A stretch of DNA of 64,000 bases from Candidatus Adlerbacteria bacterium (GCA_026397405.1 JAPLUW010000001.1:171138-235137), one strand, 5' to 3'. Numbered from the stretch's first letter, positions 11,434 to 57,964 are shown. Notes: generated by a model not told the origin, from the sequence alone. Numbers and translations: made by a program.

Positions 11434-11457
11434 CTTTATTCATTCACTTCCCCATCT

Positions 11458-12528: not shown

Positions 12529-12531
12529 TAT

Positions 12532-12568: not shown

Positions 12569-12593
12569 TGATTGTGGCCATGAAGCCGAGAGA

Positions 12594-13025: not shown

Positions 13026-13044
13026 TTGTCTTCCTTCGTTGTGT

Positions 13045-13120
13045 GCGGGGACATCCCCGCGACTCGTTACGTCCGGATATGGACAAGAAGCAATATAAAT
13101 TACTAGTTAAAAGAAGTCAA
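13045..13120 (-). promoter_or_regulatory. Near-consensus sigma70-type promoter plus 5'-UTR palindrome driving cassette A
   Basis: Minus strand: -35 TTGACT (13120..13115), 17-nt spacer, -10 TATATT (13097..13092); 7-bp-armed palindrome GCGGGGA-ca-TCCCCGC at 13045..13060 between -10 and RBS. Confidence 0.45.
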
Positions 13121-13132
13121 GCCCCTACCCTT

Positions 13133-13462: not shown

Positions 13463-13475
13463 ATATATATACAAA

Positions 13476-38906: not shown

Positions 38907-39016
38907 CTTTTGTAAATTTTTTAAACTATTTCACATCAACCCACACATATTTTCCTGCTGGAAAATTGCGCCGGGCCCGCCTCGACACCGTCGTGTCTCC
39001 GGCTCGTAGACGTGAA

Positions 39017-39439
39017 TTATTTCACGTCTACGCCCATTGAACGTGCAGAGCCGGCGATGATCTTCATTGCGCCTTCGATGTCGTTTGCGTTTAGGTCAGA
39101 CATCTTTTCCTCTGCAATTTCACGCAACTGCGCTTTGGTAAGGGTACCGATTTTTGCAGTGTTTGGTTTACCCGAACCCTTTTCCTGGCCGAGCTTCTTC
39201 ATAATAAGGTTCGAGGCTGGTGATGTCTTAAGTACAAAGTCGTACGAGCGGTCTTCGTAAATAGTTATTTCAACCGGCACCAAGCTGCCCAAGCGGTCCT
39301 GGGTTGCCTCGTTAAACTTCTTTACGAACTCGCCGATGTTAATACCAGCGGGACCAAGGGTTGTACCAAGCGGAGGCGCAGGGGTTGCCTTGCCGGCCGG
39401 GGCTACGATTTTGAGTTTTTTAGTTATTTTCTTTGCCAT
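39017..39439 (-). CDS. rplK: 50S ribosomal protein L11
   Basis: 140 aa; [41 protein letters not shown]. Confidence 0.9.
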
Positions 39440-39460
39440 AAAGGTAATGGGGATAGTACG

Positions 39461-40012
39461 TTAAATTCTTTTGACTTGCAAGAAGTCGAGCTCAACAGGG
39501 GTTTCGCGACCGAACATCGAAACAAGCACTTTAATTTTGCCGCGGCTTTCGTCCACCTCACCTACTTTGCCGTCGAGCTCTTTAAATGGTCCGTCGACAA
39601 TGACAACTGAGTCGCCGACAGTGACATCAATTGCATGTTTAATGGAACCTTCCTTCTCCTGCATGCGACCAAGGAGTGTGTCGACTTCCGACTGCTTCAA
39701 GGGCACCGGGTTAACACCTGAGCCAACGAACCCTGTCACGCGTGGTGTGTTGCGGACAACAAACCATGACTGGTCGTCTACCAACATGTCCACAAGTACG
39801 TACCCTGGGTACACCTTTTCTTCCTCTTCTACGCGGCGGCCACCTTTAATTTTAACGGTGCGCTCTGTTGGCACAACGACATTAAAAATTTTGTCCGTAA
39901 GGCCAAGCGAGTCGATGCGCTGCTTTAGGTTACGAGCAACGGCATTTTCGTACCCTGCGTAGGTGTGTATCGCGTACCATGCTCGCCCAACTGTTGAGTC
40001 TTGTTTTGACAT
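39461..40012 (-). CDS. nusG: Transcription termination/antitermination factor NusG
   Basis: Start placed at MSKQDSTVGRAWYAIHTYAGYENAV (NGN domain); C-terminal KOW (GDSVVIVDGPFKELDGKVGEV). Confidence 0.85.
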   Translation of the reverse strand: MSKQDSTVGRAWYAIHTYAGYENAVARNLKQRIDSLGLTDKIFNVVVPTERTVKIKGGRRVEEEEKVYPGYVLVDMLVDDQSWFVVRNTPRVTGFVGSGVNPVPLKQSEVDTLLGRMQEKEGSIKHAIDVTVGDSVVIVDGPFKELDGKVGEVDESRGKIKVLVSMFGRETPVELDFLQVKRI

Positions 40013-40040
40013 AGGTGTGTGAAGTGAACGAGTAATTAGA

Positions 40041-40206
40041 TTACTTTTTTGATGATGAGCGAAAACACATAGTCCCATGCACCGAGGTAGAGTGCCGTGA
40101 GAATAGAAATAGCAATAACCACAACGGTATACGTAATAGCCTGGCGGCGTGTTGGCCACGACACGTGCTTCATCTCTGCGCGAACGTCTTTAAAGTAGTT
40201 AAACAT
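40041..40206 (-). CDS. secE: Preprotein translocase subunit SecE (55 aa, below ORF-track cutoff)
   Basis: Minus-strand ORF MFNYFKDVRAEMKHVSWPTRRQAITYTVVVIAISILTALYLGAWDYVFSLIIKKVI; canonical position upstream of nusG. Confidence 0.7.
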
Positions 40207-40296
40207 ATAGATTTTTTGGCATTTTTAAAAGCCCTCTCGGGCCCTTATATGCGTTCTATAATACTGCCATTTGGGCTTTGCGTCAAGCAACAAAAA

Positions 40297-40320
40297 AGCC
40301 CCACAATAGGGGGCTTTTTT
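40297..40320. terminator. Intrinsic terminator downstream of SIMPL gene
   Basis: aaaaagcccc-acaatag-ggggctttttt. Confidence 0.6.
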
Positions 40321-40338
40321 GAACAAGATGCAGTTTGA

Positions 40339-41142
40339 TTACCGGATTTCGTAGGTGACAGAGACATCGTCGGTGACATTGTTTTGTCCGACAGAAATTT
40401 CTGGGGCTACTGCCTTAGCATCCATGGCTTGGTTGCCTGCCATGCTGTACATCATTGGGCGTGGGTAGCTGCCTCCGCTGCTTTCGCTAAATGCAGTCAC
40501 ACGTACAAGCGAGACACCGAGCTGTTTTGCCAACACTTCGGCTTTTTGCTTTGCATCAACAATTGCTTTGTCGCGTGCGCCAGTCTGCACCGCAGTCGGG
40601 TCGTCAAACGTAAAATTCAAACCACTTACCTCTGTTGCGCCCTTCCCGCCCACACCTGCAAGCAATGCGCCTGCTTTTGCAGTGTCGCGGACTTTTACTG
40701 TTGTTGTCTGGCGTACTTCGTAACCACGCAACACCTGCTTGCCGCCCGGGCAGTAGCCGTTTGCAGTACATGCCTGGTTTACGTAGTCGTATTGTGGCTG
40801 TACCGAGTAGTCTGATGTTTGGATGTCTTTGTCTGCTACTCCTTGGCCTTTCAAGTACGCAGTTGTTGCATTAGCTTTTGCAGTTGCATCTGCTTGTGCA
40901 GCATCAACAGTTGGCTTGTCGGACACTACCGAAAACGTAAATGTTGCAATGTCTGGCACACCAACATGTTCGCCGTGGCCAGAGACAGTAATGGTGTTTG
41001 TTGCAACAACGCCGGCACCAATGTAGCGCAGGCCCATAATACCCGCGAGCACCTGCACCGCCAGGAACACGCCGAGCAATATAACAGCGACCCACAGCGC
41101 TTGCTGCAACCTATGACCTGTTTGACCTTCAAATAATTCCAT
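40339..41142 (-). CDS. SIMPL (DUF541, YggE-like) periplasmic/secreted protein
   Basis: 267 aa; N-terminal TM anchor, SIMPL-type repeats (TITVSGHGEHVGVPDIATFTFSV..., DKAIVDAKQKAEVLAKQLG). Confidence 0.7.
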   Translation of the reverse strand: MELFEGQTGHRLQQALWVAVILLGVFLAVQVLAGIMGLRYIGAGVVATNTITVSGHGEHVGVPDIATFTFSVVSDKPTVDAAQADATAKANATTAYLKGQGVADKDIQTSDYSVQPQYDYVNQACTANGYCPGGKQVLRGYEVRQTTTVKVRDTAKAGALLAGVGGKGATEVSGLNFTFDDPTAVQTGARDKAIVDAKQKAEVLAKQLGVSLVRVTAFSESSGGSYPRPMMYSMAGNQAMDAKAVAPEISVGQNNVTDDVSVTYEIR

Positions 41143-41192
41143 ACTAAAAACTAATTAGATAATTAATGCAAACTTCATCGGCTGTGATGACG

Positions 41193-41882
41193 CTACTGCA
41201 CGTTCTTTATTACCGACATAATCTGCGCGTACGGTAGCGCACCCGACGCAGGGAGTGCTTTGTGTGTTTTAGTATTTAATACAACGGTAAACGGCGTACC
41301 GTTCCCTCCCAAACTTTCGGCCTCGGCCGTGTCTGCGTCAATTACTTTTTGGTATGTTGACGCCGCAACACACGCGGCATATTTTGCTGGGTCGGCACCA
41401 AATTGCTTAGCAAGCCCTGCCGAATATTCAGCCGAGAGTGCTTTTTGGTTACCAAACACTGCGTCGGTGTATTTCCAAAAGCCGGCGTTCCCAAGCTGCG
41501 CTGCGATACACTCTGCTGCATTTGCGGCGGGTGCTGCTTGTGGGTGGATACTCGTTAGTGGGAATTCGCGATACACCCAAGCAATTTGGCCGTTCGACTC
41601 TGTTACAATTTTTTTCAATGTTGGGTAGATAACCGAACAAAACGGGCATTGGAAGTCCGAATATTCTATCAAGACAATGGGTGCTGTAGGCGAGCCAAGG
41701 ATGTGGTCCCCTGCAGTCGGTGGACGCACTTCCACAGTTGTAGGCGCCGGGGCCCCTGCACCTGCCTCGACACCAGCTGCAGGGGCCCGGTTGTTTGTAA
41801 AAAGTATCGCGCCCGCAATAATAACGCCGGCCACAAGTATCGCGACCGACGGAGATATCTCCATTTTTGTATGTTCAGACAT
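41193..41882 (-). CDS. DsbA-like thiol:disulfide oxidoreductase (thioredoxin fold, CPFC)
   Basis: 229 aa; TM anchor; IVLIEYSDFQCPFCSVIYPTL active site. Confidence 0.75.
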   Translation of the reverse strand: MSEHTKMEISPSVAILVAGVIIAGAILFTNNRAPAAGVEAGAGAPAPTTVEVRPPTAGDHILGSPTAPIVLIEYSDFQCPFCSVIYPTLKKIVTESNGQIAWVYREFPLTSIHPQAAPAANAAECIAAQLGNAGFWKYTDAVFGNQKALSAEYSAGLAKQFGADPAKYAACVAASTYQKVIDADTAEAESLGGNGTPFTVVLNTKTHKALPASGALPYAQIMSVIKNVQ

Positions 41883-41908
41883 AGAGCCCAGTATATCACT
41901 GCCCTGCC

Positions 41909-42277
41909 CTACTTTTTCAGTAAGTCGCGGATCTCTTCGAGTAACACAACTTCAGCATTTTTCTTCTGCACTTCAGGCGTACCTTGGAAGCGTGCAACCA
42001 GTTTGTTGACCGGCAACACCACAAAAAAATAAATCGTCGTTGCAATAATCAAAAACGAGATAAGTGCGTTGATAAAGTCACCGTAGAGAAATTCGCTGCC
42101 GCGGATAGTAAATATCATTTTAGAAAAATCCGGCTCGTGCACAACCGCTGCGATAAACGGGGTCATTAGGTCTTTAACAAGCGAGTTGACCACGGCACTA
42201 AACGCCGAACCAACCATAACGCCGACCGCCAGGTCGACCACGTTGCCGCGCAATATAAAATTTCTAAATCCTTTCAT
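41909..42277 (-). CDS. mscL: Large-conductance mechanosensitive channel
   Basis: 122 aa; MKGFRNFILRGNVVDLAVGVMVGSAFSAVVNSLVKDLMTPFIA. Confidence 0.9.
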   Translation of the reverse strand: MKGFRNFILRGNVVDLAVGVMVGSAFSAVVNSLVKDLMTPFIAAVVHEPDFSKMIFTIRGSEFLYGDFINALISFLIIATTIYFFVVLPVNKLVARFQGTPEVQKKNAEVVLLEEIRDLLKK

Positions 42278-42294
42278 ACAAGCAGTGTAGGAAA

Positions 42295-42768
42295 TTAGTT
42301 CTTGTTTTGCAATTGCTCGATGTCGGTAATAAGTTTTTTGAGGCCTAGCTGAATTTCTTCCAACGTTTTTTTCTGGCCCGCATGCAGAGCCTCCTCTTCC
42401 TTTTCGTCTTCGGTCATCTCTTCGACATCTTCCTGAATCTCATCAACGTCCTCCTGGATCTCGTCCACGTCTTCTTGAATTTCGTCGATGTCTTCCTGGA
42501 TCTCGTCGATGTCGTGCTCAACTTCTTCAAGAGAAGCTGCTTGGTAGTTAATAGACATCTGGATAAAAATAGAAAGGTAGATAGCTTCGAGTGACACAAT
42601 TGTTGTCAGCACCAAAAGCATCCGATCAAACGGAATAAAGCCGCTCCACACCGCAGCAAAGCTTGCTGCAAATAAAATAGAGTGCACAACAATAGACGCG
42701 AGCGAACCCACGAAGCGGGTTACCACTAATGCAAACTCCTGCAATTTTTGTTTCGGCTTTTTGGACAT
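42295..42768 (-). CDS. DUF1003-like small membrane protein with acidic heptad-repeat tail
   Basis: 157 aa; two TM helices then DIDEIQE-DIDEIQE-DVDEIQE-DVDEIQE-DVEEMTE. Confidence 0.55.
   Translation of the reverse strand: MSKKPKQKLQEFALVVTRFVGSLASIVVHSILFAASFAAVWSGFIPFDRMLLVLTTIVSLEAIYLSIFIQMSINYQAASLEEVEHDIDEIQEDIDEIQEDVDEIQEDVDEIQEDVEEMTEDEKEEEALHAGQKKTLEEIQLGLKKLITDIEQLQNKN
42424..42531. repeat. Five tandem 21-nt repeats encoding the acidic heptads of the DUF1003-like protein
   Basis: Units atcttcctgaatctcatcaacgtc / ctcctggatctcgtccacgtc / ttcttgaatttcgtcgatgtc / ttcctggatctcgtcgatgtc seen directly. Confidence 0.6.
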
Positions 42769-42816
42769 AAAATTGAGACAGTTTTAATCTAGCACTGAAT
42801 AGAGGAAAGTAGAAAG

Positions 42817-42830
42817 GCCTACTGGGAATC
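42817..42830. repeat. Left direct repeat (att core) GCCTACTGGGAATC, copy of the 3' part of tRNA-His
   Basis: Exact 14-mer also present at 52784..52797 inside tRNA-His; sits where local composition switches toward AT-rich island. Confidence 0.55.
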
Positions 42831-43236
42831 CTTTTTGCCCGTTGGCTCCAGTCGCAAAGCGACATAGTCGCCTGCCTCCTCAAAAAGCCTCTGGCCCTCG
42901 CCTATTCGCTCCGCGGGCTCGGGTCCAGTTCGATTCCCAGGCAAACGCTCGCGTTGCAAAATACCCCGACCAAATGGCCGAGGTATTTTGTCACCGTGGG
43001 TGCCTGACGGTTCAAAACTCAAAACCAATAGTAGATTTCCTTATGGGCTTGAGTTCTGCGGCGTCTAAATTGCACCACTTCCAGAATAGGCTTATTTCTG
43101 CACACAAGCAAACATAGACTAATGTTTCTACTTGTTTTTATCTTCCCAGTCCCATTTGGCAAGCAAATCAAAGATTTTCGCTAGTTGAGCTATATCCTCT
43201 TCCTTAAATTTTAAATTACTATCTTTCTGCATATCA

Positions 43237-44106
43237 CTACAAAGTGGACTCGTAGGAAGCTTTTACAAGACTGAAAATATAGTCAATATCGCTCTCAGGG
43301 GTAAATTTGACCACACCTCTAAATCCCCACCTGTGAGTAGTCACGTCTCTTACAATGCCTTTACTATCTCCTTCATAAGAAGGATCCCTGAGAAGAAGCT
43401 GTATCCAAGCTCCCTTAAACTCAAGACGGGTAAAACTTTTAGTTGTGCGATAAGTGATTCCGGTTTTTTGTCCAGCCACTTCTTCTACTGACGGAAGTTG
43501 GAGAAGTTTTTCTTGCAATGTAAGGAATGCTTTCTGCATTTCTGGAGTAGCTATATCAAGATGATAGTCTAGGTTATATTCGGTCTCCTCCTTTTCTTTT
43601 TTCGTTATACGTTTTTTCTCAGGTCGAGGGCTATATTCATTCTCAATATTAAGAACGTTTCCTTCATAGAGGGAATATGTTTTCAGCTCGACTCTTTGAT
43701 GGGTAGGAGCTGCTTCTCTAGTTCGCTTATCGAAACCTTGTGCTATTAAGATGACACGTGGATTATCCCAGATTACATCCATCTCCTTCCCTAATTTGTT
43801 TTGAACCAATAGTTCAAATTCTCGTTTATTTTTGAGTAGCCACCCTAAATACGAAAGGCTTTGCGTAAAAATTTCCTTATTTTCATGCCATTTGTATTCA
43901 ATAATTACAGGAGAATTATTTTCATCGATTCCCAAAGTATCAATTCTTCCGTCTGTAGTAGGATACTCTTTTTCAAGGAACCTCACACCAAGTATTTCCT
44001 CTAAATTTTCTGCAAAAAAATCACGCAGATTAAACTCATTACCAAAACCTTCTGTTTTAAGACTAAGCTGCTGAACTTTTTTTGTATCTATTTTAAAAAT
44101 AGCCAT
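43237..44106 (-). CDS. PD-(D/E)xK nuclease-fold protein (NucS/Mrr-like N-terminal core, unknown C-terminal domain); candidate restriction/defence endonuclease
   Basis: 289 aa; GRIDTLGIDENNSPVIIEYKW fits D...(E)xK catalytic arrangement. Confidence 0.5.
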   Translation of the reverse strand: MAIFKIDTKKVQQLSLKTEGFGNEFNLRDFFAENLEEILGVRFLEKEYPTTDGRIDTLGIDENNSPVIIEYKWHENKEIFTQSLSYLGWLLKNKREFELLVQNKLGKEMDVIWDNPRVILIAQGFDKRTREAAPTHQRVELKTYSLYEGNVLNIENEYSPRPEKKRITKKEKEETEYNLDYHLDIATPEMQKAFLTLQEKLLQLPSVEEVAGQKTGITYRTTKSFTRLEFKGAWIQLLLRDPSYEGDSKGIVRDVTTHRWGFRGVVKFTPESDIDYIFSLVKASYESTL

Positions 44107-44112
44107 ATAAAT

Positions 44113-45528
44113 TTGAATTATGAGCTGGGCAGAAGTTGTTACCTCTATACAATATTTTTTACATTATACATCCATCAAAGTATTGCAAAAAAGCTAGAAC
44201 ATGGCATAGTTTTGGCACATATGCACGAGATAAAGTTGCCGAAGGTACTATTCCTAGTTTTAGTGATAGCACGCCATTTTCACAAAAAGCATATCATAAA
44301 TACAAACGATCTAGCTGATTTGGCCAATAAGTTTGCCAGTGAGCTAGTTAGGCTCAAAAAGACAAAGAAGGACTACAAATCCTTGGAGGATACTAAGTTT
44401 GGAGGCCTGCGAGGTAATTTTTCAACCGTGCTCACTTTTCGTGGCATGGTAAAGAGAGGTAGCCGCATTATTTCTTACTATGGGATAGGTCGGGACGACC
44501 GCATTCTTAATGCACTTCTGAAAGGAGAGATCGTTTTACGCGAATCAGACTTTACAGCTCATACAAACAATGAAAAATTGAAGGATCTACTTGAAACAGA
44601 AGCCCATCTGTTAAATGTCCGTGAGGATCAGGCACATATAAAGTTGCGTCTTGAAAAAGGAGATATCCCTCTCAAGAGGGATGATGTGAGTTTCCCAAAA
44701 GAATCTGTCGTATATAGTCCATCGGGACAATATTTCATACGTGGTTTATTCAACAATTACATAAACCGAGGGAAAAACTTGGTGGAGTACAATATTACAA
44801 ATTTGTGGTTTGGAACAAAGTTTAAAAAGAAAAATATACATCTCCTCTTAGCTGTACCTTCTGCATCTGATTCGTGGGATAAAATTTATGCAGTAAAAAA
44901 CGAGGAACTTATTAAACACAAACCACTTCTTTTGATAGTGGATGTCGATAAATTGTCCTGTACGGACAAAGATGGAAATAATTATAGGCTTTATCCCCTC
45001 GAAGAAGCCCTATTAAGTTTCTCAAAAGCAGAAGAAAATATTTCCGAGCGACTAGCCTATAATTCCAAAAAGGTGGTTGAGGACAATTGTGAAGATGAAG
45101 TTGAGGATAGAGAGATGCAGGAAGATGAATTTTCTATATTTCTCGAAAAGTTCTTACACTGGGGAAAGCTTTTTTCTATAGATAAGAAAGATGTGATCGA
45201 TATAAAAGTCTCAAGTTCCGGAGGTCCCGATGTTCGCTTAATATTTTCTGGAGGTACAACGCAGGCTTTAGAGTTGGAGCATAATTGGAAAAACTATATT
45301 GATCACGGTCATCCCACTAACGGGGCATTCTCTAACTGTTGGATATTTGCAGAAGAAAATTGGGATCCACAGAGAATCCTAAAACTCTTCAGAGAACTCA
45401 AAAAAATACATGGTGTACGTATTCCGGATGTTTTTCTTTGTTTGGATAATGGGGTACGAAAGGCTTATAGAGCCAATTGGGATGAAGAGACCTTCGAAGA
45501 AATAGATTTAGATTTTCCTATCTCTTAA
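44113..45528 (+). CDS. Large hypothetical protein, candidate restriction endonuclease/specificity partner of the adjacent methyltransferases (true start possibly at 44221, MHEIK...)
   Basis: 471-aa ORF only 6 nt from the divergent nuclease gene start, so an internal start is likely; C-terminal PDVRLIFSGGTTQALELEHNWK weakly resembles a PD-ExK core; 4-nt overlap with downstream Dam-like MTase. Confidence 0.4.
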   Translation: MNYELGRSCYLYTIFFTLYIHQSIAKKLEHGIVLAHMHEIKLPKVLFLVLVIARHFHKKHIINTNDLADLANKFASELVRLKKTKKDYKSLEDTKFGGLRGNFSTVLTFRGMVKRGSRIISYYGIGRDDRILNALLKGEIVLRESDFTAHTNNEKLKDLLETEAHLLNVREDQAHIKLRLEKGDIPLKRDDVSFPKESVVYSPSGQYFIRGLFNNYINRGKNLVEYNITNLWFGTKFKKKNIHLLLAVPSASDSWDKIYAVKNEELIKHKPLLLIVDVDKLSCTDKDGNNYRLYPLEEALLSFSKAEENISERLAYNSKKVVEDNCEDEVEDREMQEDEFSIFLEKFLHWGKLFSIDKKDVIDIKVSSSGGPDVRLIFSGGTTQALELEHNWKNYIDHGHPTNGAFSNCWIFAEENWDPQRILKLFRELKKIHGVRIPDVFLCLDNGVRKAYRANWDEETFEEIDLDFPIS

Positions 45529-46565
45529 TTTTCCCCCGTTACAAGCACTTCTCTGATATTTTTTATAGTGCCCCTACCCTGCATAGAATGAGAGTGTTTA
45601 AAATAATATACACGAACTTTTTTAAAATATTTTTTACATATGGCTTTTAATTCCGTTGAAGTTATCAACCCACTCTCTGAATAACTAATTGCTACTTTCG
45701 CGCCTATATTTGAGGCGTGGCTTACTATAAAATCAAATTCTCCACTTACTTTGCTTGGGTAACAAAAATCTGACTGAAAACGATCTTGTCTATAAAGCCC
45801 CTTGTGACTAAGCTTGGGGTAATCATATTTGACTGCTGTTTCTAGCAAATGGTAGAAACGGGAATATTGTGCAGGAGAATATGGCGGGTCAATATATACA
45901 AGCTTCACTCCCCTCAAGTATTTTTTGATATTTTTATCTGTAAATAAATTTCTGTAATCCATCGAAACTACCTTGTTTTGGAAATTAGAGAAAAGTATGT
46001 GGTTTTCCAATAATTTTTTTGTAAATGCATCAAGGATACTCAGCTTTCGAAGAGTTTTTAATCGGGGGTGATCCTTGGGCATATATTGCGCAAAATGTCC
46101 GGGACTAGATTGACAATGACCCATAGCATATATCAGCGCGGTAAGATAAATCGCTTTTTTCTTTGTATCTTTGACTTTATCTATGGCAAACCGGACATTG
46201 TCTATTTCCACACATTGCTCTTTAGTGAAATAAGTATCTGTGTAGTATTTTTGAAATAGTTTGTAAGTTTTATTTTTAGAAAGATGTGGATATATATCTC
46301 TTTCAAGATCTTCAGCAGATAGACGTACTTTGTTGTTTTCTATTCTTGCGATACCTATAACTTTTGAATACTCTTGTACATCATTGCCAATGATGGGATG
46401 GTTTGGCTTCAATGCATATCCTATCGAATGAGTGCCCGCCATCAAATCAAGAATTTTATCTCCTTTTGAAACCATTCTTTCGAGAATTGGGGCTATGCGA
46501 TCAAGTAATTTTATTTTAGACCCCATATATCTCATGATATATGTCTTGGGATATTCCTTTTTCAT
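45525..46565 (-). CDS. Dam-family (D12 class) DNA N6-adenine methyltransferase
   Basis: 346 aa; motif I-like YMGSKIKLLDRIAPIL and catalytic DPPY. Confidence 0.8.
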   Translation of the reverse strand: MKKEYPKTYIMRYMGSKIKLLDRIAPILERMVSKGDKILDLMAGTHSIGYALKPNHPIIGNDVQEYSKVIGIARIENNKVRLSAEDLERDIYPHLSKNKTYKLFQKYYTDTYFTKEQCVEIDNVRFAIDKVKDTKKKAIYLTALIYAMGHCQSSPGHFAQYMPKDHPRLKTLRKLSILDAFTKKLLENHILFSNFQNKVVSMDYRNLFTDKNIKKYLRGVKLVYIDPPYSPAQYSRFYHLLETAVKYDYPKLSHKGLYRQDRFQSDFCYPSKVSGEFDFIVSHASNIGAKVAISYSESGLITSTELKAICKKYFKKVRVYYFKHSHSMQGRGTIKNIREVLVTGEN

Positions 46566-47893
46566 TCTTCTTTCCGGAATATAAGAATCCAGTCATGATT
46601 CATAATCCCACTGTACGAATTCCTCGAGGTGAGTAAGGATCTTGAGTTTTCATCAAAGCTATCCTTGAAACAAGCTATGGATTTTAGATTGAGATCCTCT
46701 GCAATTTGCAGAAAATGCTCGTGGGTTTTTATTTTTTCATTTCTAACTGTACTATCACTAATCTTCATTACTAAGTGGCCATTCTTTTTTAGAACTCTGT
46801 TCATTTCACTCATACTTTTTCGCATATCGTTAAAATATTGAGAAACGACTTTAGCCATTTTGTGCTGACCATCTCTCTTAAGCTGAAAGATTTGTTTATC
46901 TAATTTAGGAAAGCCAGTCAGCATTGTATCCTCCAAATCTTTCTTATAGAATCGTTCTGTGCCTACAAGTTTTGTATCGAGAGAAAGGTATTCCTTCTGG
47001 TTACCTATAAAACCTAACCATCCCATTTCTATTTTTAAGGTTTCTAAGTAACGTATAGAGCTTATATACGGAGGATTCACCACTATTAAATCAATTCCTC
47101 TTATCTCCTTCGGAAGATCTCTCGAATCGCCTTCTATTGCTTTTATTTTTGCCCTATTAACGGGTAGAGCGTCTAAATAGTCCAACCGGCGCTTTATTGT
47201 TCTCGTAAAAGACGCCTTGACGTCTATTTTTCTTTTACCTTCGGCGTCTAATTTTCTCAGACGCTTACTATAGCCAGGAAATACATGTCTGGGATCTGCA
47301 TTTGAAACACCACGTAGAAATGCTGAAAAAGATGCCAGGAAGAAATCCCTAACGTCCCCCTCTGGTAGCTCCAGTATATTTTTCCTTAGTCTAAGAAGAT
47401 CTTTTTTCGCAAAATCCTTAAACCAATGGTCTATATTTATGCAATAGAATTCAGACTTAGTGGAAAGCTTTGACTTATCTGTATCTATTTTTTTCTGTAA
47501 TTTCTCCCAAGTCTGCTCTACTATTTTTCTATCAATCTTTGTGGTTTTTACTTTAGAAATGAACGTTGCTAACGGATTAATATCCACTCCAAAAGCATTC
47601 CTATTTAAATTCTTCGCCTCTAGAAGAGAGGTGCCAGATCCTGAAAAACTATCGAGTACATAATCTCCTTCCTTCGTGAAATTCTTGATAGCGAAGCCTG
47701 GTATTGCGGGTATAAGTTTGCCGAAATATCGGTGAAACGAATGCATTCCATTTCGATGAATTTCTTTCTCTTTATTTAAGAGCGCCTTGTAGTATTTATT
47801 TGCTGTGATTTCAACGTTCATTTTTGTAGAAATCGCTGGAAAAACATCGGAGGTAATTAATGTCTCGACGTCTGGCTCTCGAAGTTTACTCAT
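46562..47893 (-). CDS. DNA methyltransferase (N6-adenine or N4-cytosine; alpha-type motif order)
   Basis: 443 aa; AdoMet motif DSFSGSGTS, catalytic NPPY (LIVVNPPYIS); 4-nt overlap with Dam-like MTase. Confidence 0.75.
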   Translation of the reverse strand: MSKLREPDVETLITSDVFPAISTKMNVEITANKYYKALLNKEKEIHRNGMHSFHRYFGKLIPAIPGFAIKNFTKEGDYVLDSFSGSGTSLLEAKNLNRNAFGVDINPLATFISKVKTTKIDRKIVEQTWEKLQKKIDTDKSKLSTKSEFYCINIDHWFKDFAKKDLLRLRKNILELPEGDVRDFFLASFSAFLRGVSNADPRHVFPGYSKRLRKLDAEGKRKIDVKASFTRTIKRRLDYLDALPVNRAKIKAIEGDSRDLPKEIRGIDLIVVNPPYISSIRYLETLKIEMGWLGFIGNQKEYLSLDTKLVGTERFYKKDLEDTMLTGFPKLDKQIFQLKRDGQHKMAKVVSQYFNDMRKSMSEMNRVLKKNGHLVMKISDSTVRNEKIKTHEHFLQIAEDLNLKSIACFKDSFDENSRSLLTSRNSYSGIMNHDWILIFRKEE

Positions 47894-48078
47894 ACCTCGT
47901 AATTATACCTCTTTTAAGATAATTGGCTCCGACATTTTTGCCTGAAATTTGGTAAATTTGCTGAAGACATAGAGTTTTACAACAATTCCATGAAATGGAA
48001 AGCATTGTTTGATTAAATTCCCTATCAGTAGCGATATCTCCAATGTAGAGCTTTAATTAACTTGAAACTTGAATATCT

Positions 48079-48393
48079 ATGGAATCTACTGCACTGAAAC
48101 AGAATGCGTGGGGAGGAGCTAGAGTTGGGGCTGGCGCTCCCATTTCCTCAAGAACTCTGGAGACTCAAAAGATACGTGAGCTAATGCTGAAACGCTTGAA
48201 GCCTCGTGCAAAGAAAGTCTTCGATGCTCTCATAGACGCTGCTGAAAATGGAGACGTTGCCGCTACTCGACTACTCTTTGAATATTCTCTTGGCAAACCA
48301 AAAGAGCAGATTGAGCACACGGGAAATATGGGGATCCTTCACTTAATTTCTTCGTTAGAAAAACAAACTAATGCTCGAACGACAGAGAGCTAA
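48079..48393 (+). CDS. Hypothetical small basic protein (island cargo)
   Basis: 104 aa ORF; no recognisable motif. Confidence 0.3.
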   Translation: MESTALKQNAWGGARVGAGAPISSRTLETQKIRELMLKRLKPRAKKVFDALIDAAENGDVAATRLLFEYSLGKPKEQIEHTGNMGILHLISSLEKQTNARTTES

Positions 48394-48913
48394 CTATAGT
48401 CGCCATTTCATTATGTAGGACTGTGAGATCTGTGGAGGTAGCTGAGGGAGGAAGTATGGCAATACTCAGGCGTTCTTTGTTATCCGGCGTATTAACTATG
48501 AGCCAGTCAACATATTTCCCATATTTAACAGATATTGCCTGCTGACCACCAACTTGTATCGTTTCGTATCCTTGGGACACATCGTAGCCAGAATTAGAGC
48601 TTTTAAGCCAGTCTAGAGGCGTTTCAGATGGACTAATCTTTCTAGGGCTAATAACTATTGCTCCTGCCTCCTCAATAGCCTGATTCTTCGTGGAGGCAAT
48701 TGGCAATACATATATCCAACCTCCGTCAGTGTTGTTTGTATCATTACCAACAAGAAAATTATCTGCTGAATATTTGAAGGAGAAGCCAAATTCTGTTGCG
48801 TTATAGGTTTGGATATTTTCTGCCTTGATTGGGTGGTGGAGAATTAAAAAGATTGAAATGAATGCCACCATTATCAGAATCAAAAAGATTAAAAAACTAT
48901 GTCGTTTTTTCAT
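48368..48913 (-). CDS. Hypothetical membrane-anchored secreted protein (island cargo)
   Basis: Start placed at MKKRHSFLIFLILIMVAFISIFLIL (signal anchor); ORF-track ORF extends to 48979. Confidence 0.4.
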   Translation of the reverse strand: MKKRHSFLIFLILIMVAFISIFLILHHPIKAENIQTYNATEFGFSFKYSADNFLVGNDTNNTDGGWIYVLPIASTKNQAIEEAGAIVISPRKISPSETPLDWLKSSNSGYDVSQGYETIQVGGQQAISVKYGKYVDWLIVNTPDNKERLSIAILPPSATSTDLTVLHNEMATIVSSLSFEH

Positions 48914-49302
48914 ACTCCAAAAACAGTTATATACGCTGTTTTGATTACCCAAAAGATTACTACTAGGAAAAGAAACCAACAGAACAAACTCATTAGAAAA
49001 CTTCCAAGTGACTCTGGTTCTTGCTTCATAAACATTAGTTAACTAATAGTTCCAGAGGTGGAAACACAAATCCCACCGCTAGGAGGCTTGCGCCCTATGT
49101 AAGTTTCCCTACATAACATGCAACATGCCCTAACGATGGGGTTTCTATGTTGCATGGTTTTCAACCTTACCTCTGGACTCTTTCCAAAGGGTTAGGTTCT
49201 TTTCTCCCTATTCAATTGTCGAACCCCTTTAGTTTAACGTTCTTTTCAAAATGGCAAAGGAGGCTGTTTAGGAGCAGTTTTTGTGTGTACTATCAAAGCT
49301 AT

Positions 49303-50028
49303 ATGACATGGGTGTCAGATAAGAAAATTCTTGAGCATTTTAGTGATCTCAGAGAAAGGAAGGATTTTTTGAAGTTAGTGGCAAAAGTGCGCCACAATGC
49401 ACACCTTCCTTCTGCTGGCCTAGATATCACAAAAATCATAAAAGAGAATGGGCATTCTATCTTTTTTTGGGAAGCTCATGTATCTACGAACGATCGAAGG
49501 ATTATCGAAAAGGGCGCTAAAGAAATTTTGAAGAGACTTAATCTGGGACCGCATTTAGAAGAAATAATAATCTCTTATATTGCCAAGGGAGATGGTTATG
49601 ACAAAGGTTTGACTTCCAGTGTCTCCGTGACTGTTGGTTGTTTACTATCAGAACAGGACGATCACTTTCTCATGTATATCTATCCTGAGGCAACTCAAAA
49701 CCATACAATCCAGTTTCTGAAGGATAATTGGGACTACATAAAATATTGGCTCCAAGAAAAACATCCAGAGCGGCAAGCGTTGAAGGTTAAGAAGAGAACA
49801 CAGCGTGATCGAGATAGAAAAATTATCGAGCTTTATGATTGGGGAGTTCTAAAAGCTTCGGGAGTATATAACCTAAAAAACGCAAAAGTTTTTTTGGCCA
49901 CAAGAGGGATAGAAGTGGATGATGTTTTGGACATATATAAAAGTTTTAAAAGATTGAACTACGCACTACCCAAACCTGACGCTATCAAAAAGGTAGTTCA
50001 AAGATACAACAAACTTCGCAAGAGTTAA
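49303..50028 (+). CDS. Hypothetical protein (island cargo)
   Basis: Start placed at MTWVSDKKILEH; ORF-track ORF begins at 49147; AT-rich codon usage. Confidence 0.35.
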   Translation: MTWVSDKKILEHFSDLRERKDFLKLVAKVRHNAHLPSAGLDITKIIKENGHSIFFWEAHVSTNDRRIIEKGAKEILKRLNLGPHLEEIIISYIAKGDGYDKGLTSSVSVTVGCLLSEQDDHFLMYIYPEATQNHTIQFLKDNWDYIKYWLQEKHPERQALKVKKRTQRDRDRKIIELYDWGVLKASGVYNLKNAKVFLATRGIEVDDVLDIYKSFKRLNYALPKPDAIKKVVQRYNKLRKS

Positions 50029-50155
50029 ATTAGGGAAGTATTTTCAAAGGAAATATGTCGGCTGGCTGCCGACTCTTTTTATTTTACCGTCAGCGCATGG
50101 TCGAAATTAATAACAACCAAGCGCACACGACAGAACTTCAAGAAATTGAAGACTT

Positions 50156-50584
50156 TTGTGTGCGGTTGGCACCAGAACTCATCAAAATATGGAAGAGAAC
50201 GAAGAGCAGTCCATGAAAAGAATGGGCGAACTCATGCATACTCCTTCCTTTGTTGCAGACGACCCAGACGACGCAAAGTATTCACTAATTATGCACGGCC
50301 TCTGTAAAAAGTACGGAGTAAAAGAGCCTCTGGAGCGTCATATTTTTTCAATCATTGAAAATATGTCCAGAAATATGCTCTGTGTCTACAAATTAGAACA
50401 GTTTGCTAAATATTCAGGCGGCACACCCGAAGAGATAGAAAGGGTGCTTGAAAAGCTTGAACACCGAAACTGCATCGTCAGAGGTAAGGCAAAACAAACG
50501 AATGGTTGGAGATTGACTGAGGAAGTCCGGCGATCTGCAAAATGGTTTAAGGAGGCTATCAAACTGAAAACAAAACATGGGTAA
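50156..50584 (+). CDS. Hypothetical protein (island cargo)
   Basis: 142-aa ORF; internal Met at 50189 is an alternative start. Confidence 0.35.
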   Translation: MCAVGTRTHQNMEENEEQSMKRMGELMHTPSFVADDPDDAKYSLIMHGLCKKYGVKEPLERHIFSIIENMSRNMLCVYKLEQFAKYSGGTPEEIERVLEKLEHRNCIVRGKAKQTNGWRLTEEVRRSAKWFKEAIKLKTKHG

Positions 50585-50905
50585 AATCCTAATTAATTTT
50601 ATAACGAAGTTATAAAAAATTCTTAATTAAGCTTTTTTTAAAAGCTTCTTTATAAAAAAGCCCTAGGAAGGGAGGAAGGTTGATAAGTCTGGCGCTCCCC
50701 CGCTTCGCCTCAGAGGTTGTGGCTTCTTTACCTCCCCTAAGCCTCAAAACTGGTGTTTACGCAGAGAAAGCACGAAGGCTGGGAGGAATCACCACTCTGC
50801 ACAGGTTCCAACGTTCTAAGTGGTTTTACGCAGATTAAAAAAATTAAAAAACTCTGCGGTTTCCAGAAGGATAAAAATAACGAGGTTAACTTAAACAATA
50901 ACAAT

Positions 50906-51244
50906 ATGAAAAAAGCAATTATCTACGCTCGAACAAATTATTGGGGTGAATGGGCAGATATAAATCTATCAGTGCAAGAAAAAAGTTGCCGGCGACATGC
51001 AGAAGCCTACGGCTACACAGTAATCAAAATCTTTAGGGACAAATCCTATAGACGCAGAGAGGGACGGCGTCAGCTACCTCAACTGTTTCAGTATCTACAA
51101 AACAATCCCAACAAAGTTGACGCTCTGTTTATAGCAGAACAAAAAGTACTAGCGGCACATTGGCCGGACTACTTAGCACTCCGTGAAAGATTGAAGACAT
51201 ACGGAGTAAAAATTGAATCAATCAAGTATAGATTAAAAAGATAA
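50906..51244 (+). CDS. Small resolvase-domain protein lacking the catalytic serine (degenerate serine-recombinase paralogue)
   Basis: MKKAIIYARTNYWGEW... aligns with the YxRVSSxxQ catalytic region of the adjacent large recombinase (VIYVRVSSEEQ) but has RTN instead of RVS. Confidence 0.45.
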   Translation: MKKAIIYARTNYWGEWADINLSVQEKSCRRHAEAYGYTVIKIFRDKSYRRREGRRQLPQLFQYLQNNPNKVDALFIAEQKVLAAHWPDYLALRERLKTYGVKIESIKYRLKR

Positions 51245-51273
51245 AGGCACGTTAAAAACCAGATAAAATAATT

Positions 51274-52848
51274 ATGAAAAAGATATCAAAAGAAGTTGAA
51301 CGCCCAAATACCTGCGTCATTTATGTGCGGGTGAGTTCAGAGGAGCAAGTTAGAAATTATAGTTTAGGCAGTCAGGAAAAAGCCTGCAGAGACTACGCGG
51401 GGAGGCAGGGATGGAACGTACTTGAGGTTTTTGTTGAGAAAGGTGAATCTGCAAAAAACTCTGAAAGAACAGAGCTGCAAAAGATGCAACAGTACTGCAT
51501 AAAAAATGCGGATAGAATCGGATATTTACTCATCTATAAAGTGGATAGATTCGCTCGAAACCCTATAGACCACTTTGCAATAAAATTGCTACTCCGTAAC
51601 TGTCGTGTAGAGCTTAGATCGGTCACAGAAGAAATTGACGAAAGTCCTCAAGGGAAATTGTCCGAAGGAATGCTCGCTGTGTTTGCTGAATTTGATAACA
51701 ATATCCGCACTGAACGGAGCGTGGGAGGAATGATATCAAAAGCCCAAGATGGTTGTTGGCCAAGCGTCGCACCTTGGGGATACATGAATATAGAGAATGA
51801 AGCACAAAGAAGAATCATCGTCCCCCATCCAGAGAGAGCTCCTATCGTTAAGTTTATCTTCGAAGAGTTTGTCAGAGGGGCGGTGAGATACAAAGAACTT
51901 GCACTCAAGGTGAATAAGATGAGTGATGTACGCACTCGGCATGGCTGCAAAGTAAGCAAACAGTTGGTCTATAAAACTCTACGCAATCCAATTCATTGCG
52001 GGAGGGTGGTAATTCCAAAATGGAATGTAGATGTGCAAGGCAAACATGAGCCAATAATTTCGAAAGAATTGTTTGAGGAGGCACAGACCATCATGAACAG
52101 CGGGAAGCGGAGCAAGTTACCGAGACATCAGGATAATCCTGACTTCCCTCTTAGAGGACTAATGTGTAGGTGTGGCGCACACTTGTCTGGAGGCTTCAGT
52201 ACTGGCAGAAATCAGAAATACGCCTACTACGGATGTAGTAGAGACTGCTCTTATAGAACAGCTATACGCAAATCAGACTTTGAAGATGATTTCACTGAAT
52301 TCTTGGAATCTATCACTCCTAATCCTGTCGTGCTTGAAGCTCTCAAAGAAGCAATGGTAGTCTCGTACGAAAAAGATAAGGCGGATAATATTCAGCGGGT
52401 ACGAAAAATAGAAGTACGGTTGCAGAAGGTTGAAAAGGAAATGGAGTCGCTCTTGTCTATTAAAATACGTGGATTGATTGACGATGATTATTTCCTACGC
52501 ACGAATGAAAAATTCAAAGCGGAGAAAAGAGAACTGGAGACAGAGTGGAGGGGTATGGAAAACCCAGACGTAGAAGTTAAAAAGGCTGTTGAGTTCGGAA
52601 TTCGGGTAGTCCAAGAGTTCCCTACTATGTGGAGGGAGTTAGAACCTGGAGAGCTTCGGGTTTTAAGAGGTCTATTCTTCCCCCAGAATCTGGTCTTCCA
52701 GTATCGAGGTTTTAAAACCGCTCATTTAGCCCCAATCTACAACCTAAAATCGACAAACGCTGACCAATTGAACCATCAGGGGTGCCTACTGGGAATCGAA
52801 CCCAGATTGCGAGTTCCACAAACTCGAGTGTTAACCGTTACACCATAA
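51274..52848 (+). CDS. Large serine recombinase (phage-integrase type: resolvase catalytic domain + recombinase domain + zinc ribbon + coiled coil)
   Basis: 524 aa; VIYVRVSSEEQ nucleophile region, zinc ribbon CRCGAHLSGGFSTGRNQKYAYYGCSRDC; 3' end of ORF reads through most of tRNA-His. Confidence 0.8.
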   Translation: MKKISKEVERPNTCVIYVRVSSEEQVRNYSLGSQEKACRDYAGRQGWNVLEVFVEKGESAKNSERTELQKMQQYCIKNADRIGYLLIYKVDRFARNPIDHFAIKLLLRNCRVELRSVTEEIDESPQGKLSEGMLAVFAEFDNNIRTERSVGGMISKAQDGCWPSVAPWGYMNIENEAQRRIIVPHPERAPIVKFIFEEFVRGAVRYKELALKVNKMSDVRTRHGCKVSKQLVYKTLRNPIHCGRVVIPKWNVDVQGKHEPIISKELFEEAQTIMNSGKRSKLPRHQDNPDFPLRGLMCRCGAHLSGGFSTGRNQKYAYYGCSRDCSYRTAIRKSDFEDDFTEFLESITPNPVVLEALKEAMVVSYEKDKADNIQRVRKIEVRLQKVEKEMESLLSIKIRGLIDDDYFLRTNEKFKAEKRELETEWRGMENPDVEVKKAVEFGIRVVQEFPTMWRELEPGELRVLRGLFFPQNLVFQYRGFKTAHLAPIYNLKSTNADQLNHQGCLLGIEPRLRVPQTRVLTVTP

Positions 52849-52853
52849 GCACC
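52781..52853 (-). tRNA. tRNA-His (anticodon GTG) with genomically encoded G-1
   Basis: Minus strand GGTGCTTATGGTGTAACGGTTAACACTCGAGTTTGTGGAACTCGCAATCTGGGTTCGATTCCCAGTAGGCACC: 8-bp acceptor including G-1:C73, D-stem GTGT/ACAC, anticodon loop TTGTGGA, T-arm CTGGG-TTCGATT-CCCAG. Confidence 0.8.
52784..52797. repeat. Right direct repeat (att core) GCCTACTGGGAATC within tRNA-His
   Basis: Identical to 42817..42830. Confidence 0.55.
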
Positions 52854-52910
52854 ATATTTCGCACCTGCTGTCCCCTATATATAGCAAACTGCGGCACTAA
52901 GAGCCAGCAA

Positions 52911-53897
52911 TTACACTTGTTTGCGGCGCTCGCGCAAAGACGAGAAATATGAAGCACCTATAAACAACAAACTAATAGACCCCGCAACCGCGTCAGGTAC
53001 CGGCTTAAACAAACCTATAAACATGCACAGCGACAGCGCCCCTATCGCCCAGTAGGCACCGTGTTCCAAGTACACCAATGTTGCAAGCGTCTTTTTTTCT
53101 ACTAACAACACCGTAAACGTTCGAACAAAGTATGCGCCGATGCCAAGCCCCACGACAATAATAAGCAACTCCGATGTTAGCGTAAAAGCACCAACTACGC
53201 CGTCGAACGAAAACGCTGCGTCTAACACGTTTAGGTACATAAACAATCCAAACCCCTGTTTTGCAACCTGTGCACCCGACGTACCAAGCATGTCGACCAC
53301 GCCTTCCATCAATACAAACAACACAATTCCAACAGCGCCTGCGCCAAGTATCACAGCCGCATGCACAGGCGAAAGCCACGCACACAACAACAGCAAAGAC
53401 AGCGCGACGGCGACTTCAATGGCCTGGACTTTCCCCCACGACACAAGCCTTTGTTCGACAAACCCTATCCAGTGCACCCGCTTTGCTTCGTCAAAAAAAT
53501 ATTTGAGCGCTACCATCGCCAAAAATGCCCCGCCAAGAGCGTGTATAACCGGTGCAGCACCTTCCACCAAACGTGCGTACTCTGCAGGGTTGTTAAACAA
53601 CAGCATCAGCAGCACGTCAGGCGAAATAGCGGCTGCGAGCGACACAAGCAACACCGGGAAGACAAGCCGAGTCCCCACAACCGCGATAAACATACCCCAC
53701 GTTAAAAAACGCTTGCGCCATTTTTCGTCCATGCGCATAAGCACACGAGCATTAACGACCGCGTTGTCGAACGACAGCGACACTTCCAGCACCGTCAAAA
53801 AAAGCACCAGCGCCAAGGCCTCCATTCCGCCCCACACATAGGTTGCAACGAATGCAACGACCGACACCAGCACCGGTCCGATAAAAAGTTTTAACAT
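52911..53897 (-). CDS. DUF475/TerC-family integral membrane protein
   Basis: Start placed at MLKLFIGPVL (upstream extension overlaps tRNA-Leu); LSFDNA motif repeated (EVSLSFDNAVV, LDAAFSFDGVV). Confidence 0.65.
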   Translation of the reverse strand: MLKLFIGPVLVSVVAFVATYVWGGMEALALVLFLTVLEVSLSFDNAVVNARVLMRMDEKWRKRFLTWGMFIAVVGTRLVFPVLLVSLAAAISPDVLLMLLFNNPAEYARLVEGAAPVIHALGGAFLAMVALKYFFDEAKRVHWIGFVEQRLVSWGKVQAIEVAVALSLLLLCAWLSPVHAAVILGAGAVGIVLFVLMEGVVDMLGTSGAQVAKQGFGLFMYLNVLDAAFSFDGVVGAFTLTSELLIIVVGLGIGAYFVRTFTVLLVEKKTLATLVYLEHGAYWAIGALSLCMFIGLFKPVPDAVAGSISLLFIGASYFSSLRERRKQV

Positions 53898-53925
53898 ACC
53901 AACAACTATACTAGAGAAAACAGTG

Positions 53926-57866: not shown

Positions 57867-57892
57867 TGCTAATAGTATAGACTGACTGCACA

Positions 57893-57964
57893 GCCCCTGT
57901 AGTTAAACGGATATAACCGCGGACTTCTAAGCCGCTGTTCGAGGTTCGATTCCTCGCGGGGGCA
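57893..57964 (+). tRNA. tRNA-Arg (anticodon TCT)
   Basis: GCCCCTGTAGTTAAACGGATATAACCGCGGACTTCTAAGCCGCTGTTCGAGGTTCGATTCCTCGCGGGGGCA; anticodon loop CTTCTAA. Confidence 0.75.

Follow-up and report, generated by a model that had tools for sequence, protein, structure and literature searches.

The question raised by this locus is how a large serine recombinase comes to stand against the 3' end of a tRNA-His gene, and how much of the neighbouring DNA arrived with it; tRNA genes are textbook targets of tyrosine integrases. We analyzed a stretch of 64,000 nucleotides from a Candidatus Adlerbacteria bacterium (GCA_026397405.1 JAPLUW010000001.1:171138-235137), here called the window, and coordinates without another label count from its first letter. 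Positions 43006-52787 very probably form an integrative element of 9,782 bp in the chromosome of this member of the Candidate Phyla Radiation (CPR, Patescibacteria), a likelihood that we assign to the element jointly with the full explanation developed below. By its sequence, the element is a serine-integrase island with tyrosine-integrase-like site usage, whose phage-type attachment site (attP) lies in its own integrase gene.

Boundaries of the island and the empty site

An empty site was sought with the neighbouring TerC protein as query, one genome being taken per species. In the Candidatus Adlerbacteria metagenome-assembled genome ELA416 (JBAXLB010000002.1, locus L009), whose TerC is 96% identical, the reverse complement of window 42810-43005 adjoins tRNA-His without interruption and leads on to the DUF1003 gene; this arrangement constitutes an empty site. 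In BLAST comparisons with the reverse complement of this locus (L009rc), positions 5883-9874 matched window 39004-43005 with 94% DNA identity, and positions 9867-11007 matched window 52780-53920 with 92.6% DNA identity. The two matches overlap by 8 bp, the duplicated sequence GGGTGCCT, and because they do so at the junction the island was delimited as 43006-52787. The right copy of GGGTGCCT lies at 52780-52787, and both copies correspond to tRNA-His positions 67-74. The guanine-plus-cytosine (GC) content is 0.387 within 43006-52787 and 0.489 in the rest of the window; the drop starts near 43.0 kb, not at 42.83 kb, and the DNA at 42769-42997 has a GC content of 0.52. The features at the left junction are:

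42810-42997, no strand: host spacer between tRNA-His and the DUF1003 gene, outside the island, present and collinear in L009
42998-43005, plus strand: attL core, the left 8-bp direct repeat GGGTGCCT, at the boundary between host DNA (left) and island DNA (right), from the L009 BLAST comparison

The initial annotation had described a compositionally foreign, AT-rich island integrated at the 3' end of tRNA-His, and the GC difference and the empty site in L009, where tRNA-His, spacer and DUF1003 gene are uninterrupted, back this. It had also seen correctly that the large serine recombinase adjoins the tRNA and that its open reading frame (ORF) runs into it, the last 70 nt being antisense to the tRNA. 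Its boundaries were a 14-mer, GCCTACTGGGAATC, that does occur exactly twice in the window, at 42817-42830 and at 52784-52797, the right copy lying inside the intact minus-strand tRNA-His at tRNA positions 57-70. An island at 42817/42831-52797, with the 14-bp repeat as attL and attR and the left copy as a displaced partial tRNA, is favoured by the exactness and non-randomness of the repeat (0 of 100 shuffles gave two or more copies) and by the place of its right copy in the 3' half of the tRNA. However, the empty site in L009 holds both 14-mers (minus strand, 11137 and 11321) and is collinear through 43005, which refutes the 14-bp model. The GC content of 42831-42997 is likewise 0.52, host-like, and the bases left of the left 14-mer (CTT in tRNA sense) would not complete the tRNA-His acceptor stem. 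We give these boundaries hardly any credence: the left 14-mer is host DNA, 168 bp outside the island, and the compositional step lies near 43.0 kb. The classical arrangement with a long partial tRNA copy does not hold either, since the duplication is only 8 bp, as expected from the short attachment sites that a serine integrase uses.

The insertion moved the host spacer 42810-42997 to a distance of 9.8 kb from tRNA-His, and a hairpin at about 42957-42989 that was formerly downstream of the tRNA is now equally remote. The spacer (L009 11155-11345) holds two tRNA-His-like fragments in inverted orientation to each other: the 14-mer at 42817-42830, equal to tRNA positions 57-70 in the orientation of the gene, and a T-arm-like 13-mer, GTTCGATTCCCAG, at about 42929 in the opposite orientation. 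Both are kept in L009 and absent from more distant Adlerbacteria, and they do not represent the 5' continuation of a tRNA-His pseudogene. The other Adlerbacteria loci, L010, L011 and L015, have different DNA downstream of tRNA-His. Elsewhere in the window, tRNA-Arg(tct) (57889-57964) is inverted with respect to the L009 genome (2429-4834), where about 2.3 kb of additional DNA beside it contains three ORFs, two of them for a glyoxalase-like and a TrmB-like protein; no recombinase was recognised in this DNA.

Three Logan assemblies contain the locus in identical form, and its left flank is covered by additional Logan contigs. The contig ends gave no evidence of excision, the breaks (42896, 43242, 43617 and 49286) not being attachment sites.

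Attachment sites and the target tRNA

The right end of the island lies within the tRNA gene:

52768-52787, plus strand: P arm of attP and attR core, TTGAACCATCAGG-GGTG-CCT, from the rebuilt attP, with the right repeat copy at 52780-52787
52779-52852, minus strand: tRNA-His(gtg), the intact target gene (ARAGORN; Rfam tRNA 59.8 bits)

Comparison with the tRNA of L009 indicates that after integration positions 1-72 of tRNA-His are host DNA and that discriminator C73, C74 and C75 come from the element; the tRNA is unchanged because the element supplies these three bases. In the more distant Adlerbacteria L010 and L015 the tRNA-His gene ends in ...GGCACCCCA, with CCA encoded, in L009 (11145-11158) it ends in ...GGCACCCA, with one C fewer, and in the occupied window it ends in ...GGCACCCCT, with an extra C from the island.

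Joining the right end of the island to the left end gives an attP of the form TTGAACCATCAGG-GGTG-CCTGACGGTTCAA, a near-palindrome of 13+4+13 bp in which 12 of the 13 arm positions match as inverted repeats around GGTG. Among all centres of symmetry in the 300 nt examined, its centre, at GT, scored highest, with 12 of 15 scored arm positions matching. In known serine integrases crossover takes place at the central dinucleotide of the attachment sites. We infer that the crossover dinucleotide here is this GT, which would lie at 43000-43001 at the left junction and, in the alignment with the tRNA, at 52782-52783 (tRNA positions 72-71) at the right one. The predicted attP 44-mer is CAATTGAACCATCAGGGGTGCCTGACGGTTCAAAACTCAAAACC and the predicted attB 44-mer, its bacterial partner, is GTATTTTGTCACCGTGGGTGCCTACTGGGAATCGAACCCAGATT. 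Palindrome centres fall at the equivalent tRNA position in the related loci L188, L075, L088 and L103, and those of free-form attP sites directly follow TTGGT, in which the ACCA end is read antisense; this is the tRNA position found in the window. Scans for promoters and terminators gave nothing decisive near the tRNA or near the LOOT RNA described below, promoter-like sites being no more frequent than in shuffled sequences.

The recombinase and its exchanged C-terminus

The recombinase gene is divided between the two ends of the island:

51274-52848, plus strand: large serine recombinase, integrated form, 524 aa (Pfam Resolvase 104.7 bits, Recombinase 51.8 bits)
43006-43117, plus strand: detached 3' end of the recombinase gene, which is also the P' arm of attP, with the native tail TVQNSKPIVDFLMGLSSAASKLHHFQNRLISAHKQT*, from homology to the tails of relatives

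The protein matched the PHROG integrase family with an E of 1.7e-80, and its match to Zn_ribbon_recom (19.7 bits) was below the Pfam cut-off of 25.3. Y17, R19, S21, Q25, R92 and R95 are invariant across 22 homologues, as are the zinc cysteines C298, C300, C321 and C325, and in an AlphaFold model of the homologue P0026 the ribbon strands are followed by long helices (362-466), as expected of a coiled-coil insertion. The recombinases among the island ORFs are of the serine family only, and no Phage_integrase (tyrosine) match was obtained with these ORFs. No recombinase of the phage collections is more than about 30% identical to the enzyme, which is weakly similar to the solved structures of TP901-1, A118 and a resolvase-family protein and whose scores fall well short of the NCBIfam cut-offs for CcrB and XisF.

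Residues 1-505 of the integrated form are encoded by the element and residues 506-524 (LGIEPRLRVPQTRVLTVTP) antisense to tRNA-His. When 51274-52787 is joined to 43006-43117, an open ORF of 541 codons is restored in frame, the free form, and its codons 503-505 are the attP core, which places the recombination site inside the integrase ORF. The free form ends in ...NHQGCL|TVQNSKPIVDFLMGLSSAASKLHHFQNRLISAHKQT and the integrated form in ...NHQGCL|LGIEPRLRVPQTRVLTVTP. Since attP lies inside the 3' end of the gene, integration swaps a C-terminal tail of 36 residues for 19 residues read antisense to the tRNA. The coding sequence of the detached tail is still intact in the integrated island, 9.8 kb from the gene.

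The rebuilt tail aligned with those of at least four unintegrated or tandem relatives, among them P0026 of locus L187 (TMQNSKPIIQFLQSLSAVAGKFASLQNR...) and P0073 of L188 (TIPDSKPFVEFFCRLGNTISHFENK...), neither with an adjoining tRNA, and the upstream recombinase of the tandem pair in L190, LSR_A (TIQNSKPIVAFLKELSSTASKFASLQNR...). No terminal overlap that would indicate circularity was found in the free-form contigs L187 and L188. Over 28 tail codons compared between the window and L187, 10 were identical, 6 synonymous and 12 non-synonymous, with 16 residues in common; because 6 of the 16 shared residues are reached through synonymous codons, the comparison points to selection on the protein sequence of the tail. 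Other unintegrated relatives have a second tail type, W-N-x-I...L-K-x-W, the first being the SKP type, and in L084 and L036 detached copies of the second type are found upstream of the integrated recombinase.

A family of tRNA-targeting relatives

At E <= 1e-10 the recombinase had 1,249 homologues, and those named by source belong to Patescibacteria (Parcubacteria RAAC4_OD1_1, Doudnabacteria, "Patescibacteria group"). Most of the 120 homologues listed, out of the 1,249, have ends that are antisense to a T loop, such as VTLPGIEPGL, GIEP, GFEP, GFEPRF and RIEL. We surveyed 96 metagenomic, viral and genomic loci with a strong recombinase match, which fell into these classes:

antisense tRNA gene overlapping the ORF end: 46 of the 96 loci
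no more than the T-loop motif, the contig ending there or no tRNA being called: 11 of the 96 loci
no tRNA (free forms, the tandem case and one beside a group I intron): 24 of the 96 loci
not evaluable: 15 of the 96 loci

The tRNAs used comprise 17 isoacceptors (Glu 19, Ala 7, Arg 6, Pro 5, His, Met and Lys 2 each, Trp, Asn, Leu and Ile 1 each). Relatives 55-59% identical to the window enzyme use Arg(cct) and Glu(ctc), and one at 42% identity uses Glu(ttc). Further islands were mapped in L191, about 8.2 kb in a RAAC4_OD1_1 genome, in L032, another tRNA-His user, and in L036. The length of the repeat varies, from 8 bp in the window to 13 bp in L036, 16-17 bp in L191 and 17 bp in L032, and some relatives of the recombinase on IMG/VR contigs end at a tRNA. 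By homology, then, the recombinase is a member of a clade of large serine integrases that target the same spot in many tRNA genes, and this targeting is a family trait.

Several relatives are arranged in other ways. In L190 (629-2281 and 10001-11557) two related islands stand in tandem at one tRNA-Glu(ctc); they meet at an attP-like junction, and for this reason the upstream recombinase, of 550 aa, has retained a tail of the native type. In L189 two different serine-recombinase genes (10001-11585 and 12026-13553) face each other, and each runs antisense into a separate tRNA gene; the two tRNAs, Arg(cct) and Phe(gaa), are about 440 bp apart. In L052 (6841-7143) the 3' end of a related recombinase adjoins a group I intron on the opposite strand (RF00028, 50.7 bits), and the target may be an intron-containing tRNA gene that ARAGORN did not call. 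In L084 a DUF3800-IX RNA motif (RF02968, 72 bits, 11711-11779) lies about 150 nt downstream of a related recombinase without an end tRNA, and a detached piece of tail-coding sequence is found 7 kb upstream (about 3065).

LOOT RNA, a serine-less paralogue and the conserved backbone

In the nearest subclade, from CPR bacteria, the elements share a backbone made up of the recombinase, its catalytically dead resolvase-domain paralogue, a small protein resembling a regulator and the LOOT RNA, and the cargo, of methyltransferase or defence genes, is variable. In the window the backbone and the ORFs that lie among it are:

48079-48393, plus strand: backbone ORF, 104 aa, 54-58% identical to ORFs in L189 and L190
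48368-48979, minus strand: ORF of 203 aa (167 aa from ATG 48871) with a hydrophobic N-terminal segment, 54% identical to L190 5482-6042
49082-49198, minus strand: LOOT RNA (Rfam RF03000), the sole copy in the window, 70.3 bits against a gathering score of 46.4, model positions 1-121
49303-50028, plus strand: ORF of 241 aa, first gene of the rightward operon, with no match in a family search
50156-50584, plus strand: backbone ORF, 142 aa, 46-57% identical to ORFs in L189 and L190
50906-51244, plus strand: small paralogue of the recombinase catalytic domain, 112 aa (Pfam Resolvase 32 bits), aligning with recombinase residues 1-115

LOOT was surveyed with nhmmer and Rfam; a custom covariance model was dropped, the MAFFT/RNAalifold alignment having given one hairpin only. 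In the window the RNA occupies a divergent intergenic region between leftward genes and the rightward recombinase operon, and 12 further related elements (13 in total) also have it, 0.7-6.6 kb upstream of the recombinase and on the other strand. The LOOT-bearing loci were L028, L029, L030, L031, L052, L067, L084, L085, L187, L189, L190, L191, L216, L217 and L237. A search of IMG/VR that started from the LOOT pattern found a serine recombinase within 0.2-6 kb in all three genuine matches; two of the three were divergent, and L237 has LOOT on the recombinase strand, about 6 kb away.

In most elements an ORF starts 11-63 nt after LOOT, the ORF at 48368-48979 being the first gene downstream of it on the same strand in the window. 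These ORFs are mutually unrelated, and a role of LOOT as the leader of one specific gene was rejected for lack of homology among them. A role as a guide RNA pairing with the attachment sites, like the IS110 bridge RNA, was also rejected: the longest shared or complementary words were 5-10 nt in 8 elements, no different from shuffled controls (mean about 7, maximum 9-12), and their positions within LOOT were inconsistent. Since an ORF usually follows at 11-63 nt and no complementarity to the attachment sites exceeds chance, LOOT most likely acts at the head of the leftward, variable cargo operon.

The 112-aa paralogue lacks the catalytic serine (YARTNYWGE, compared with YVRVSSEEQ in the recombinase) and the E-helix. 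It was found, at 112-130 aa, in 8 further elements of the clade with at least 40% identity and in none of the more distant ones. It stands directly upstream of the recombinase in L028, L030, L031, L188 (3978-4361), L189 (9661-10017), L190 (twice, 289-627 and 9661-9999) and L191 (9527-9898), and none of these copies has the serine. It is a candidate partner of the recombinase that might serve as directionality factor or regulator.

The 142-aa ORF is possibly a winged-helix regulator, to judge from weak matches to a PHROG transcriptional regulator (E 0.0012) and to Pfam Rio2_N. The 241-aa ORF did not significantly resemble its positional counterparts in L188, L189 and L190, and the idea that this ORF of about 240 aa is a conserved replication gene was rejected for its lack of conservation among relatives.

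Cargo

The left half of the island carries the genes that differ between elements:

43237-44106, minus strand: PDC-S18 candidate defence protein, with a NucS-like nuclease N-terminus and DUF5655 (PADLOC PDLC04946, E 5.9e-63)
44113-45528, plus strand: cargo ORF of 471 aa (435 aa from ATG 44221), convergent with two methyltransferase genes
45525-46565, minus strand: D12-class N6-adenine DNA methyltransferase (Pfam MethyltransfD12 71.6 bits; PADLOC MTase_II)
46562-47893, minus strand: N6/N4 DNA methyltransferase (Pfam N6_N4_Mtase 72.1 bits; PADLOC MTase_II, E 9.8e-45)

The PDC-S18 protein matched Pfam NucS_C and DUF5655 at their cut-offs. The 435/471-aa ORF had no match in Pfam, PADLOC, PHROGs or NCBIfam, and by its position only it is a candidate restriction endonuclease. 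The initial annotation had read the cargo as a restriction-modification and defence module plus five ORFs without assignment. The two DNA methyltransferases and the PADLOC candidate bear out the module in part, but no profile recognised a restriction endonuclease; the five ORFs proved to be mostly conserved backbone common to related elements, not cargo. Restriction-modification and defence genes in the relatives include RE_NgoPII with a methylase, Mrr_cat and HEPN_AbiU2.

Proposed mechanism and alternative explanations

In the proposed mechanism, recombinase dimers would bind attP in the 3' end of their own gene and other dimers would bind attB, composed of the tRNA acceptor and T arm and about 20 bp downstream. 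Cutting at the central GT (tRNA positions 72-71), rotation and rejoining would then follow. The tRNA would be kept intact, with discriminator C73 and CC coming from the element, and the recombinase gene would lose its native tail, left as coding sequence at 43006-43117, and would end inside the antisense tRNA. Most likely the tail swap, the serine-less paralogue or both bias the direction of recombination, integration as against excision.

A more far-reaching proposal, which we offer tentatively and think unlikely to hold in all its parts, is that the enzyme represents an undescribed lineage of tRNA-specialised serine integrases. Such a lineage would retarget at least 17 isoacceptors through the bases that rebuild the discriminator and CCA and through its DNA-binding domains, would sense its own state by way of the attP inside its gene, and would have LOOT as a dedicated regulatory RNA. 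The conserved C-terminal helix of the free form would favour integration; the tRNA-coded stub of the integrated form, with the serine-less paralogue as directionality factor, would favour or permit excision; and LOOT would drive, for example, read-through of the variable cargo operon.

Several observations weigh against the account of the island given here. The 8-mer GGGTGCCT alone is not significant, with 3 occurrences on both strands where about 2 are expected, and therefore the boundary rests on the alignment with a single relative at 92-94% DNA identity. Neither an excised circle nor an empty site from the same population was seen, all five contigs carrying the locus being occupied or too short to be informative, and the exact attP junction had no match in IMG/VR. 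The central dinucleotide is deduced from symmetry only. In L191 and L032 the rebuilt free form continues for no more than 2-5 codons past the repeat; the tail is therefore not universal, and an obligatory role for the tail swap is weakened. AlphaFold gave the free-form P0026 a mean predicted local distance difference test score (pLDDT) of 88 for the body and of 40-50 for the tail, where a weak helix of low confidence appears. Genes for transfer, replication or virion formation were recognised in none of the profile searches of the island (Pfam, PHROGs, NCBIfam).

That there was no insertion, the 9.8 kb being ancestral and deleted in the L009 lineage, would be compatible with there being a single empty-site genome and with the different DNA downstream of tRNA-His in L010, L011 and L015. 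A deletion, however, is not expected to leave an intact tRNA and spacer, and it leaves unexplained the GC offset of 0.10 and the serine integrase at one junction. When the two ends are joined, moreover, they give a near-palindromic attP and restore an ORF in frame whose tail is homologous to those of relatives, and elements built in this way stand at other tRNAs in unrelated genomes. We consider deletion scarcely credible, on a par with the 14-bp boundaries. That the island is a decayed prophage or phage satellite, as opposed to a plasmid-like or defence island, has somewhat more in its favour, since relatives of the recombinase lie on IMG/VR contigs, some of them ending at a tRNA, and IMG/VR contigs also bear LOOT. 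PHROGs, on the other hand, recognised in the 9.8 kb only the integrase, a weakly matching regulator and a single family without assigned function, with no capsid, tail, terminase, lysis or replication genes, and the identifiable cargo consists of methyltransferases and a defence candidate. A phage origin thus appears improbable.

The strongest competitor leaves the element as described and takes the C-terminal swap to be without function, attP overlapping the gene end through compactness, both forms of the enzyme acting alike and direction being set otherwise. L191 and L032 are essentially without a tail beyond the core, the tail is predicted, with low confidence, to be flexible, and the tails of integrated forms are arbitrary tRNA-antisense peptides of varied length, all of which agree with this explanation. 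Against it, the SKP-type and W-N-x-I...L-K-x-W tails are conserved as protein across distant relatives, with synonymous substitutions, and the detached tail coding is intact in the window island. We regard a functionless swap as a serious possibility, a little short of an even chance, and retain as the preferred explanation a serine-integrase element in which the tail swap, the paralogue or both would influence direction.

Comparison with known systems

The serine-integrase island resembles the tRNA islands and prophages of tyrosine integrases (P4/lambda-type; Islander/TIGER) in its target at the 3' end of a tRNA gene, in the integrase gene beside the tRNA, in the restoration of the tRNA by the element, in its AT-rich accessory and defence cargo and in the empty site of a relative. 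It differs from them in having a large serine recombinase, a duplication of 8 bp here (13-17 bp in some relatives) in place of a long 3' tRNA copy, a crossover that would lie at acceptor positions 72-71, and an integrase ORF that runs antisense into the tRNA.

With phiC31, Bxb1, A118, TP901-1, CcrA/CcrB and XisF the recombinase shares the Resolvase and Recombinase domains and a zinc ribbon with a long coiled-coil insertion. The predicted attachment sites, short and partly palindromic with a non-palindromic central dinucleotide, would likewise resemble those of the large serine recombinases of phages and SCCmec, as does the integrase gene's place beside attP, and Ccr also targets the 3' end of a conserved gene. 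Unlike the phage and SCCmec enzymes, it has a tRNA target and an attP inside the recombinase ORF, and its partner gene codes for a shortened version of the catalytic domain that lacks the serine, unlike any known type of directionality factor.

The rarity of serine integrases at tRNA genes, asserted in the initial annotation, agrees with the survey of Mageeney et al. 2020 (PMC7192596), in which tRNA genes were used by 4.9% of serine-integrase elements (14/297) as against 44.5% of those with tyrosine integrases. According to the same paper, tRNA use by serine integrases was previously unreported and in need of proof, and whatever attracts integrases to tRNA genes "does not pertain" to those of the serine class. 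Our literature search, of incomplete coverage, found no account of tRNA-targeting serine integrases in CPR bacteria or of a context for LOOT. Rfam presents LOOT as a candidate small RNA only, and the main text of its source (Weinberg et al. 2017, PMC5737381) does not discuss it. The RNA in the window is a full-length match to this motif above the gathering score; beyond what is known of LOOT, it stands here in a defined context, in serine-recombinase elements and at the head of a variable operon.

The closest parallel for an attP in the integrase ORF is found in the SSV-type 'suicidal' archaeal tyrosine integrases (Badel et al. 2020, PMC7253208), which also use tRNA targets, are split by integration and switch target sites among relatives. 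In the island described here, unlike these, the enzyme family and chemistry are unrelated, the recombinase domains being of the serine family only, and the hosts are bacterial (CPR); only the last 36 codons are detached, and the integrated gene encodes all recognised domains and need not be inactive. In the conversion of IntP to IntX of myxophage Mx8, attP lies inside the 3' part of the gene and integration alters the C-terminus of the protein; in cluster G mycobacteriophages, which have integration-dependent immunity, the altered protein is the repressor. Both systems have tyrosine integrases, and in both the altered C-terminus reflects the free or the integrated state. Set beside them, a clade of serine integrases striking acceptor positions 72-71 in many tRNA species bears on why integrases use tRNA genes, and makes of it a testable question. 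The CPR bacteria, whose mobile elements are poorly known, would gain a recognisable family of defence-carrying islands, the orphan LOOT RNA would gain a genetic context, and compact integrases with highly conserved natural targets would be of practical interest for genome engineering.

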